Source of the DNA: Octopus vulgaris
Lineage: Eukaryota
Assembly: GCA_951406725.2 (NCBI GenBank)
Contig: OX597834.1
Coordinates: 24,614,001-24,678,000 of the forward strand
Length of the DNA stretch: 64,000 nt
Reading direction: 5' to 3'
Part shown: positions 21,189-63,314 of the stretch, in pieces
How the letters are laid out: the number at the start of each line of letters is the position of its first letter
How positions within the stretch are numbered: the stretch's first letter is position 1
Notes under the pieces: model-generated
The model's database searches: none
Seen by the model: only the letters and a program-made list of their open reading frames with translations
Told to the model about the DNA's origin: nothing
Translations under genes and position numbers: made by a program

Positions 21189-21624
21189 GCACACACACAG
21201 TTAAATGAAATTCAGGTAAAAACCTTGTAGAGTGCTGTGCTCGTCCACAATTATTGACTACTTGATGTCATGATACAGTAGAGATGCATATGCAAATAGA
21301 CATACTTCAGGAATTCCAAAGTATATATAAATAGATCAAACAGAAAATGTAATTAACGAGATCCGTTATTCAAAACTACAAGAATTGATTAAACAGTCAC
21401 CTGAAATTAAACATTCTGCACTTATGATGTAAGATAATTGACGGCACAATATCTCACCTATGTACTACTGATGCGAGAATACGACGAGACAATTGGAGTG
21501 ATTTTGAATAAAAGGTCTCGTTAATTCAATTTTCTGTCTATACATATACACCTATAATACACACTCACACACACACAGACACACACACGCACATGCACAA
21601 CTTCAAGTTGCATAAACCTATAAT

Positions 21625-22580
21625 ATCCCACCGACCTTAGATCTAGACCAATCGTAGCAGGCCCGAACTGTGAAACACGCAAACTCAGCAACTTTATAGA
21701 TATATTACTGAAACCTATTTCAAAGTAAATATTAAATCTTGTGAAGGACGATCTGGACTTGTTGAACCACTATTGTATCTTTTCAAACCTCATCAGCCGA
21801 CTTCAGGTATGTAGTTTCAGATATTTTGTTGTATCATTTGAATGTCATTATCAAGAATCCTGCAAACCAAATCCCTCACCAATATGGACTAATGACAATA
21901 AATTTCTGGTTTGAGGAATTCCTGCATGAAATTCCAGACAGAAAAAAGAGTTTCATCACTGAAGGATTAAACTTTATCCTCGAAAACAATTTTTTGACTT
22001 CGGTGGTAATATTTACAAAAATCTAGCACTGCAATGAAACAAAAGTTGCTCCGACTTACGCCAATGTAGTCATGGTATACATGGAGGTCCAGATACATGA
22101 ACAATCTAAATTAATATATGGCTCGAAATTCCCCAAATATCTACTAGAAAACTGGAAACTGGAACATTACTTAGATGACTGTTTAATCCTATGGAGGCAC
22201 GCATTTGAACAACTTATAAATTAAAAAAAAGTCTAATCAACAGCATAAACAATAATATTAACTTCACAGTAAAACTCTACCATTCCTGGATATACTAATC
22301 ATCAAAAGAGATAAAAACATTGAAACCGATATTCACTACAAACAAACAAACAGATTCTCAACAATACTTGCTGTTCGCCTCATGCCGTCCCAAACACACA
22401 AAGAATGATATATCCTTTATCTAGCAAGAAGAATCTGCACAACAGTCTCAAACCCTGAAACTCGCAATAAAAGACTCCAGGAACTAAAACAAGTACTACT
22501 TAAAAGACAATATCTATTAATACTAATAGACAAAGGAATAGAACGTGCCAAAGCAATAAGTATCGAAGAACTGCGAAAAC
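21625..22580 (+). mobile_element. Penelope-like element reverse transcriptase fragment (pseudogene)
   Basis: RPIVAGPNCETRKLSNFIDILLKP, KVAPTYANVVM, HYLDDCLILW, LPFLDILIIKRDKNIETDIHYK, LARRICT..ETRNKRLQELKQVLLKRQY. These are Penelope RT and thumb motifs, broken by frameshifts. Confidence 0.92.
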
Positions 22581-22866
22581 CAACCTTGTTGATTCATTAT
22601 TTTTCTTTTGCTTGCCTACAATATAGTGTCTAATTCCCGGAGATTTGAAGGTGATAATAGGGGCTTTAGCGTCTATTATTTGCAGTGCGTGGTGAGGCGT
22701 AAAGCCGGTTCCTTGTAATAATTATGTATATAATTATAAAATATTTTGTAAAATTAACCTATGAGGTTTTTATTTCTGCAATGACTACCCGGTAAAATTA
22801 TTTGTGATTTTATCCTTTTATTATAATTAATATTTGAATACAGACATACATATATTAATATATATA

Positions 22867-60802: not shown

Positions 60803-61093
60803 ATATAGAGAGGTAGTATTTAACCCCACTTGAACGCGGATGTTGTGATAGAACAAACTTCACTGCAGTAGATACCATTAGGGAAACTGCCATAGAGTCG
60901 TTTAGTGCAAACTGCACGCCTATTTCTGTTGGTGCTGGAGTTGATGGGAATTTATCTCCTACGCTACCGATATAAACAAGTGGGCATTTTGCACCAAAAG
61001 CCTATGATAGTTTCTCTAATGGTAGGTACTGCAGTAAAGTTTGCACAAACTGAACGTCCACGTTTAAGAAGGATTAACTATTACCTATCTGTA
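60803..61093. repeat. ~290-bp fold-back (MITE-like) element
   Basis: CAAACTTCACTGCAGTAGATACCATTAGGGAAACTGCCATAG pairs with CTATGATAGTTTCTCTAATGGTAGGTACTGCAGTAAAGTTTG; pairing continues inward to ~60950 and outward to AGGTAGTATTTAA / TTAACTATTACCT. Confidence 0.82.
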
Positions 61094-61101
61094 TTAATAC
61101 T

Positions 61102-61332
61102 CATTTCTTTACTACCCACAAGGGGCTAAACACAGAGGGGACAAGCAAGGACAGACAAACGGATTAAGTCGATTATATCGACCCCAATGCGTAACTGGTA
61201 CTTAATTTATCGACCCCGAAAGGATGAAAGGCAAAGTCGACCTCGGCGGAATTTGAACTCACAACGTAACGGCAGACGAAATACTGCTAAGCATTTCGCC
61301 CGGCGTGCTAACGATTCTGCCAGCTCGCCGCC
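61102..61332 (-). mobile_element. SINE family A, full length, 16-18-bp TSD
   Basis: CCTATCTGTATTAATACT at 61084-61101 and 61331-61348; another partial copy at ~61400-61530. Confidence 0.94.
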
Positions 61333-61564
61333 TATCTGTATTAATACTGCCTCTGTCACACACATATATATGGTTGGTTATCGGATTTTCACGATCTGTT
61401 ACAGGGCTCAAGGCTAGTATTTTTGGAGGTTAAGAGACAAGCCGATTGCATCGACCCCAGTACTCGACTGGTACTTGTTTTATCGACTCCAAATGAACGA
61501 CTACCAAAGCTGACCTCGGCGAAATTTGAACTATGTATAATAGATCATGCGATCTTCTATCCTT

Positions 61565-61703
61565 ATTCTTACAACCTTTCTGTTCTGGTAGTAAATTCTG
61601 GTTGTCAAGGTGCTCGTAAATGCTTTCTGAAAGCATTCTTTTTAACAGCTTTACACTAATGTTAAGCAAGTAATTGGTCTATAATTGCTAGCTGTACTAT
61701 CCT
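61565..61703 (-). mobile_element. R4/Dong-like RT fragment
   Basis: Minus: DSTASNYRPITCLTLV / KLLKRMLSESIYEHLDNQNLLPEQKGCK (RT domains 1-2). Confidence 0.85.
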
Positions 61704-62382
61704 TGATAAATGCGGTAAAGAAATAAGTGGAATACTTACCTATACACATGGAAGAAGCGAACACTAAGTCATGAGCACAACTAAGTACCCCAAATACGTG
61801 CTTATAGTGATAAATTACATGGTTATAGACGTTGTGTCCATTTTCGGCATATTTTGGCATTAGAATTTTTTTCTTTTGCACTTACTTATAAATTGTTTAT
61901 AAATTTAACCTTTAAAGGTATTTTTTAATATGCTGGCCATTGATAGAATTTTTTTCGAAAATTTTTTTCCTTAATTAGATGTTAATTTAATAGTGTTCAC
62001 TTCCGGACTCTCGCACTTTACGAGAGTTTTTCGGTTCGAATCGCACGTGTCTCGAGGTGTGCTAGAGAGTTTCTATTTTGGATACATTTGGGTTACTTAG
62101 TTGTGCTCATGACTTAGTGTTCGCTTCTTCCATGAGTATAGGTAAGTATTCCACTTATTTCTTTACCGCATTTATCACTGATGAAGGGAAGGTTCTTATG
62201 AACTAACTCTGAAATCGGGTCCGATATGGTAATAACAGGATTTTTTAAAGAAATTTCTGTTAGCCTTCTTCGAAATACGTGCTTGTAGTGATAAATTACA
62301 TGGTTATTGACGTTGTGTCCATTTTCGGCAAATTTTGGCATTAGAATTTTTTTCTTTTGCCCTTACTTATAAATTATTTATA
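61704..62382 (+). mobile_element. ORF-less hammerhead-containing retroelement (retrozyme / non-autonomous Penelope-type)
   Basis: Direct repeats 61792-61901 and 62273-62382 (period 481 nt); 61704-61795 is the reverse complement of 62086-62177; HHR at 62172-62232; ends in (TA)n. Confidence 0.8.
62172..62232 (+). ncRNA. Type I hammerhead ribozyme, all core nucleotides intact
   Basis: TTATCA-CTGATGA-AGGG aa GGTTC ttat GAACT aa CTCT-GAAA-TCG ggtc CGA-TA-TGGTAA. 6-bp stem I, extended stem II, 4-5-bp stem III, predicted cleavage after AUA at 62226. Confidence 0.87.
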
Positions 62383-62388
62383 TATATA

Positions 62389-62474
<86 letters not shown>

Positions 62475-63314
62475 TGTGTGTGTGTGTGTGTGTAGATAAA
62501 TATGTAGATGGATTGATGGAAAGAAAGAGAGAAAGGGTGAGATAGGGAAAGAGATGAAGAGTGAGAGAAAAGAAATTGAACGATTGATGCATCCAGACGC
62601 ACAAAGATATAAGATCGATAGACAGACAGACAGAGAGCCATTTCTGTATTCTAGAATTATAAAGTGAGTTGTGGTTTGTCATGGAATTTCAAGGAAAATC
62701 ATGGCTGCTTCACATTTCTATACTCGTCTACCACTAGCACCCGGGGACTTAATCCCCAAGGATTGAATTCAGATTTTGATGTGTGTGTGTGTGTTTCTGT
62801 GTGTGAATGGAATACCCTAAGGGCTCCGTTGATGTTCGACAGTCCTGCAGGATTTTGGTCGTCGTGAAGCCAGGCGGAATAGAGCAGTGGCGGTGGTGGT
62901 GGAGGTGATGATAATGGTGGTGGTGATGGTGGTGGTGATGGTGATGGTGATGTCGACGGTGGTGATGGCGATGTTGCTGGTGGTGGTGGTGGTGGTGGTG
63001 GTAGGGAATCAGTGATGTAAACCGACACTTGTTAATGAAGGAGACAAACGTTAATGGGTAAGAATGTAAAAATGATTTGAGTGAAGGATTAAGAATGTTG
63101 ATGATGGATGAGGATTGATTGGGGAATTAGGGGCACTTAGGGAAGAGGGAGGTGGGGAGGGAGAGGGAGAGAGGGAGAGAGAAAGAAGCAAAGGAAGAAA
63201 CAAAGACATAGATGTAACCAGAAAGAGAGTGAGAGAGAGAGAGATATAAAAAGAAAATTAGATGCAGAGAGAGAGTGAGAAAGAGAGAGACAAAGCGAGA
63301 GAAAGAGATATGCT

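Follow-up and report, generated by a model that had tools for sequence, protein, structure and literature searches.

A protein-free hammerhead repeat with a Penelope-type insertion footprint in the Octopus vulgaris genome

Introduction

How does a short repeat that carries a hammerhead ribozyme and no gene come to be inserted in the octopus genome? The question is raised by a compact element in the window, the 64,000-nt stretch of Octopus vulgaris DNA analysed here (contig OX597834.1, positions 24,614,001 to 24,678,000), which the original prediction described as a candidate retrozyme mobilised in trans by a Penelope reverse transcriptase. A dependence of retrozymes on Penelope-like elements (PLEs) was put forward in PMC7229834 and 10.64898/2026.07.22.740005, and the available literature text presents the route of animal retrozymes into genomes, by a PLE or LINE enzyme acting on circular RNA, as a proposal without a demonstration. 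As described in parts of PMC8557442 and PMC3846280, PLEs leave partial tandems and inverted 5'-truncated arms, optionally carry a 30-40-nt tail and show a bias toward microsatellites. In the work of PMC11167929 (in the portion available), the DNA cut by a purified PLE protein is AT-rich, both strands are extended, and synthesis begins at two internal sites of the RNA, which correspond to the tail.

Results

The element in the window

The element is made of one full unit, a partial second unit and an inverted arm, and ends in a (TA)n tract as predicted. Its features are as follows.

61704..61795, minus strand: inverted arm, the reverse complement of unit positions 295-386 (window 62086-62177)
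61792..62272, plus strand: full 481-nt unit, register arbitrary (circular permutation), non-coding, ~34% GC
61899..61981, plus strand: interval from end A (~unit position 108) to end B (~190), the ~80-nt counterpart of the PLE 'tail' by comparison with parts of PMC11167929 and PMC8557442
62172..62232, plus strand: hammerhead motif of type I with its core at 62178-62184 and 62211-62214 and the cut predicted after 62226
62273..62380, plus strand: partial second unit (positions 1-108), stopping at end A, the probable start of reverse transcription
62381..62471, no strand: (TA)n tract, the presumed insertion target

The direct repeats (61792-61899 and 62273-62380) start 481 nt apart and differ at 5 of 108 positions, so that the predicted spacing and the few mismatches hold while the length is 108 rather than 110. 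The inverted arm differs from its forward counterpart at 2 of 92 nt, and its outer end is the base preceding CTGATGA (62178), just as had been claimed. The element lacks coding capacity, its longest ATG-started frames being 75 and 52 codons, both on the minus strand, and the extra hairpin noted near 62007-62027 is present in the unit. A minus-strand fragment adjoining the element resembles a LINE reverse transcriptase; the R4/Dong label given to it found no supporting match in Pfam or PDB.

Structure and constraint of the hammerhead motif

The motif at 62172-62232 contains CUGAUGA, GAAA and an AUA triplet, with a stem I of 6 bp, a stem II of 4+5 bp and a stem III of 4 bp that carries a self-complementary loop. 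It is the only descriptor match on the forward strand of the window, and the reverse strand has one weaker match. The core and three stems of the predicted type I ribozyme are in place. For the isolated motif, an alternative fold in which the core pairs with stem III is predicted to be more stable than the catalytic one, at -14.7 vs -11.0 kcal/mol (3.7 kcal/mol apart). In the circular fold of the window unit the catalytic fold is likewise not the minimum, and a 76-nt stretch around the hammerhead folds no better than its shuffles (z -1.39). The search against Rfam that had been suggested as a check gave no hammerhead match in the window at the gathering score and none at E<=10 in 61400-62500; Hammerhead_1 gave the motif of the unit no score.

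Stem II shows covariation. In a 76-row alignment, whose rows were picked by a core pattern and are hence uninformative on the core, 92.9% of cells pair. Two pairs of stem II change on both sides across subfamilies (GC/AU/GU in 32/26/13 rows and UA/CG in 42/28), and the covariation score, which is inflated by kinship among the sequences, was reached by 0 of 500 shuffles. At two outer pairs of the stems, by contrast, pairing is lost in 35 and 30 of the 76 rows. The constraint on the core was measured in copies chosen by an upstream anchor outside the hammerhead, of which 24 of 30 were kept after dropping 2 rearranged copies and 4 second arms. Over the 12 core bases, these have differences at 4/288 sites vs 357/4165 elsewhere; the background rate of private variants is 3.8%, and all 12 bases are intact in 20 of the 24 copies. 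The only subfamily variant in the core falls at position 7, which is free; counted by columns, the contrast in subfamily variants between the core (0/12) and the rest (38/174) is not significant (p=0.13). With its core, three stems and covarying stem II, the motif is a type I hammerhead of the sort found in non-LTR retrozymes. For animal hammerheads, PMC4209133 (in the part available) associates dimeric activity with a self-complementary stem III and loop.

Two further features lie close to the motif. A 10-nt internal inverted repeat (62170-62179 vs 61805-61814 and 62286-62295) could, judging from its sequence, block the hammerhead by pairing sequence further downstream with the 5' strand of stem I, and several inverted arms stop close to its downstream partner. 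A splice-donor-like hexamer at 62142-62147, ~35 nt upstream of the core, is kept at the equivalent place in all subfamilies; no acceptor was identified for it.

A dispersed family of circularly permuted units

The unit is multi-copy. A DNA search of the genome (2.8 Gb, 227 contigs) gave 2905 first-look candidates, of which 40 were scored. Compared with the window copy, the best 40 long matches, its self-match aside, are 88-93% alike. An exact 30-mer of the hammerhead of the window subfamily matched 105 times (reversed control 0), and a wider hammerhead pattern that takes in the sister subfamilies matched 916 times (control 0), while the upstream and tail anchors gave 669 and 937 matches. From these counts and a decay of ~4-5% from the majority sequence, we infer a few thousand copies in the genome; the loci actually inspected are a few hundred out of several thousand copies. 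Units of the sister subfamilies are 497-503 nt long, 78-84% alike and have the same layout as the window subfamily. Across the family, units are 472-503 nt with 32-35% GC and no ORF of more than 75 codons, a short, non-coding, low-GC unit without LTR features, as in retrozymes. A short reading frame from the cut site was considered as a coding relic and rejected, as it has 38 codons in many copies of the window subfamily and 16 in the sister subfamily (by eye).

When folded as predicted circles, natural monomers fold better than their shuffles (z -1.9 to -8.6; n=10, 12 shuffles each), the window unit having z -3.9; an 11th monomer, which contains an internal inversion, has z -14.9. As to expression, no RNA run was listed as holding the unit. 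Contigs of four public runs under four organism labels cover it, their RNA nature being a guess and RNA of the element being inseparable in them from read-through or DNA. A variant tail from these contigs occurs once in this genome, in a short old insertion. A depth excess at 61913-61951 in DNA runs was not borne out by the genome, which has 937 matches there vs 916 for the hammerhead.

The insertions carry a Penelope-type footprint

All inspected copies are circular permutations of one unit. We assigned end classes from BLAST end ranges in 87 hammerhead-anchored loci: the 3' end falls at site A (~108) in 50, at site B (~190) in 30 and elsewhere in 7. The two fixed ends are thus ~80 nt apart, giving a tail of about 80-100 nt. 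Seventy of the 87 loci run into (TA)n, and an inverted arm is present in 47, in 40 of which the arm starts at A or B. The 5' ends are scattered along the unit with a mild cluster at positions 331-335 (8/86), and on this spread we rejected a fixed transcription start or stop. Forward arms reach ~1.5-1.8 units at the longest, and head-to-head arms each end in (TA)n, with no poly(A) tail and no target duplication evident by eye. Both pairs of features that mark PLE insertions were found here, namely partial tandems with inverted 5'-truncated arms, and two alternative 3' ends with an AT-rich target; the insertions carry the PLE footprint.

The window copy has a forward arm of 589 nt that stops at end A, one hammerhead, and an inverted arm starting internally at an atypical place; it is otherwise like the rest of the family. 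That the stop of its arm at CTGATGA has a special meaning is not supported: the predicted cut lies 49 nt further on, 40 of 47 arms start at A or B, and besides the window copy one inspected copy (L026) starts an arm at the base before CTGATGA. The tandem arrays expected of a retrozyme did not appear either. Two same-strand hammerheads occur in 11 loci, at most two were seen in a row, and three in a row were absent among the first 100 listed matches of each of three pattern searches.

In some cases the same insertion was met at nearby places, two or three each (L022 and L129, at G000:C17:26.587 and 26.597 Mb; L223-L225, at C1:157.25-157.66 Mb), pointing to segmental duplication after insertion.

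Repeats of one insertion share private variants

The variants that the repeats of one insertion have in common bear on which RNA was copied. We compared 41 tandem and 83 inverted pairs from 114 loci with control pairs drawn across loci; the pairs are not independent, since several come from one locus, one pair of loci is paralogous and one older copy is unrelated. Tandem pairs have 37 non-majority bases in common vs a control mean of 7.0 (max 24), and inverted pairs 134 vs 28.1 (max 46). Rare variants in common number 10 vs 1.5 in tandem and 35 vs 3.5 in inverted pairs. Eight dimers of the sister subfamily have 16 rare variants in common vs a control mean of 1.0 (max 8, 2000 draws), and, ranked among 53 sequences, the partner repeat is the nearest in 4 of these dimers, second in 1 and at ranks 11, 23 and 25 in the other 3. 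The inverted arm of the window copy (61704-61795) likewise has non-majority bases in common with its forward copy.

Neighbouring repeats can undergo mutual gene conversion. Variants could thus have come to be shared after insertion, by conversion or local duplication, in a family spread by LINE or DNA-level amplification, and a LINE-like fragment adjoins the window copy. However, repeats inside one insertion differ at 5.3-5.7% of sites and so have not been homogenised; in addition, two fixed internal ends, head-to-head arms in (TA)n and the lack of poly(A) or evident target duplication are features of PLEs and not of LINEs. We therefore give this explanation very little credence.

The variants and the passage through the predicted cut site bear together on the template. 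Eighteen inverted arms that were unselected for the hammerhead have the length needed to reach the cut site. Of these, 17 pass it, and the junction there is exact in 191 of 209 contexts, the remainder being substitution-like except for one probable 2-nt deletion. A cut linear template would end at the cut site, and an uncut tandem would not duplicate private variants; the sequences therefore favour repeated copying of one monomer. The monomer template was probably circular, a circle being its simplest form.

The main competitor takes linear RNA as the template of a non-autonomous PLE: two-hammerhead transcripts left uncut, or cut monomers with precise template jumping. It does without a circle, and the hammerhead may then serve some other step. 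In vitro, the Anolis PLE mainly copies uncut RNA, cleavage being dispensable there (PMC11167929, in the portion available), the read-through of the cut site suits a circle and an uncut template equally, and no copy longer than ~1.8 units was seen. Yet uncut tandem RNA copied without jumps can only shorten copies and would give repeats no locus-specific variants in common, and jumps at a cut 5' end would need near-complete efficiency and exactness. We regard copying from linear RNA as unlikely, though it deserves real weight beside the circular monomer.

A-to-G editing left no scars in these copies: the unshared changes are 84 A>G vs 162 T>C (p=0.32) and the shared ones 5 vs 10.

Penelope-like elements in the genome

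The enzyme behind the footprint was sought among the PLEs of the same genome. The decayed PLE of the window (21620-22585), named in the original prediction as the mobiliser, belongs to an older family whose copies are 73-85% alike; this family has no BLAST similarity to the unit and, in 20 loci, no sense-strand hammerhead by descriptor, and we rejected it as the partner. In each PLE search, the best 136-150 of more than 10,000 candidate PLE fragments were scored. Neither the unit nor its ends has significant similarity to the four families examined (A-D), and families B, C and D as partners find no support in sequence; among 21 alignments of PLE ends to the unit, one reached p=0.023.

Two of these families resemble the unit in how they insert. 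Family B has frames of 776-876 aa with an RVT_1 match and two ends 45 nt apart in (TA)n (6 copies), and family D has a 775-aa frame and two ends 32 nt apart in (TA)n. Families B and D thus show in this genome the same double-end footprint as the hammerhead unit.

These families have several features of their own. Family B (L083 at G000:C9:26742000-26750000, L081, L082 and L085) is very young and intact, ~5.8 kb long, and has a first frame of more than 400 codons without a Pfam match ahead of the RT-GIY-YIG frame; it has no canonical hammerhead. About 50 nt before its first end, GAAA and a palindrome resemble half a hammerhead, and they are also present in family A and in L092. Family D (L305-L334) is likewise very young and intact, with a unit of ~4.27 kb and no canonical hammerhead in the 3' region. 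Family C (L335-L364) is very young and has open frames of up to ~1200 codons; ~115 nt ahead of its single (TA)n end lies, in 29 of 30 loci, a hammerhead-like motif of minimal form whose core is variant.

With the proteins of family B, tblastn found PLE matches in 5 of 198 loci of the unit (some overlapping) and none in 30 and 31 further loci. In all five, (TA)n or several hundred unrelated bases lie between the match and the unit copy, and we set these frames aside as co-location and not fusion. An ORF with RT and GIY-YIG joined to the unit, as an autonomous PLE would have, was found in none of the loci fetched.

These counts bear on whether the unit is simply the pseudo-LTR (pLTR) of an autonomous PLE, the observed copies being its 5'-truncated insertions and the ORF-bearing ones lying outside the sample. 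A hammerhead followed by two end sites is the layout of a pLTR (PMC4209133 and PMC11167929, in the parts available), and both the inspected share of the copies and the scored share of the PLE fragments are small enough to leave room for this. It is nevertheless quite improbable in our judgement, as copies longer than one unit wrap into the unit again, not into a 3' UTR or ORF, and the few PLE matches are all separated from the element. The multi-copy, circularly permuted, non-coding 481-nt hammerhead unit with a Penelope-type footprint that had been proposed is thus borne out in the loci fetched, and the proposed mobiliser is not.

Discussion

A model for the copying of the unit

We consider it rather probable that this protein-free hammerhead repeat is pasted by a borrowed reverse transcriptase/endonuclease of the Penelope-like type, which would copy round an RNA predicted to be monomeric. 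A two-hammerhead copy would be transcribed and would cut itself to one unit, and the cut monomer would then probably be ligated to a circle. A PLE enzyme would nick a (TA)n tract, and reverse transcription would start inside the unit, either 154 or ~236 nt past the cut of the hammerhead, run back through the cut site and stop at random. An occasional run of 1.5-1.8 units would regenerate two-hammerhead copies. The second DNA end may often prime on the same template, as (TA)n is identical on both strands, and would thereby give the inverted arms that are observed.

A fuller form of this model, which we offer tentatively and which falls somewhat short of an even chance, reads the insertions as a record of rolling-circle target-primed reverse transcription: a PLE enzyme would prime a hammerhead-made circle at two internal sites and from both strands of (TA)n, the circle would be a real intermediate, and only two-hammerhead insertions would sustain the family. 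The window copy, with one hammerhead, is probably a dead end. If the rolling-circle reading is true, the lack of likeness to the resident PLEs would mean that the enzyme is recruited via RNA structure and not via a shared end. Weighing against borrowing from a PLE are the four families without similarity and a tail of 80-100 nt vs the usual 30-40. Among predicted Xenopus retrozyme dimers, 8 of 9 did not cleave (10.64898/2026.07.22.740005, as far as its text is available).

Relation to known retrozymes and Penelope-like elements

The octopus family is at once like non-LTR retrozymes and like non-autonomous PLEs, a kind that is already known. Set beside the metazoan non-LTR retrozymes as described in parts of Cervera and de la Pena 2020 (PMC7229834), with predicted cleavage and predicted circles on the octopus side, it is likewise non-coding, below 45% GC, with one type I hammerhead, a highly self-paired predicted circle, thousands of copies and PLEs in the same genome. 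It differs in its unit of 481-503 nt vs ~170-400 there, in its dispersed copies with at most two hammerheads vs dimers to 62-mers, and in its PLE-type double ends and inverted arms without evident target duplication. For the vertebrate retrozymes of Li, Clavereau and Pollet (10.64898/2026.07.22.740005), the available text also proposes PLE dependence and reports dispersed monomers and dimers in their families. The evidence there is co-occurrence and pLTR likeness in 35 genomes (vertebrates, insects and a coral), whereas the octopus unit resembles none of the PLEs examined, and its insertion footprint supplies the evidence.

With EN+ PLEs that have a pLTR and tail (PMC8557442, PMC11167929, PMC3846280 and PMC4209133, each in the part available), the family has in common the partial tandem, the inverted 5'-truncated arm, the two ends, the AT-rich or microsatellite target and a hammerhead with palindromic helix III upstream of the ends. 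In contrast to them, it has no ORF, a tail of 80-100 nt and full hammerhead stems instead of the minimal form. The Chlamys non-autonomous elements such as MRC1, as described in parts of PMC8557442, are also non-coding and pLTR-forming with head-to-tail insertions, but those generally match an autonomous family at the 3' end and no such partner was found here. The literature searched held no prior description of this cephalopod family, Repbase and several supplements lying outside that search, and the main text of an octopus repeat annotation (PMC13282606), in the part available, has no mention of hammerhead or retrozyme.

The same octopus insertions carry both the PLE footprint and the signal of single-unit copying, and their genome also contains several PLE families that are young and intact. 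How retrozymes are copied can be put to the test with one 500-nt RNA and a small set of enzymes.

Other hammerheads and neighbouring repeats

A genome search with RF00163 gave 6 other hammerheads among 73 scored candidates, none resembling the unit. L194, L195 and L198 (around 1500-1610) form a separate hammerhead family that scores on RF00163 and has a very long stem II. This family is unrelated in sequence to the 481-nt unit, and in L194 and L198 an inverted copy lies beside it. Just upstream of the element in the window are a 93-nt inverted repeat pair that is 76% complementary (60803-60895 and 61002-61094) and two 94-nt SINE-like repeats 273 nt apart (61166-61259 and 61439-61532).
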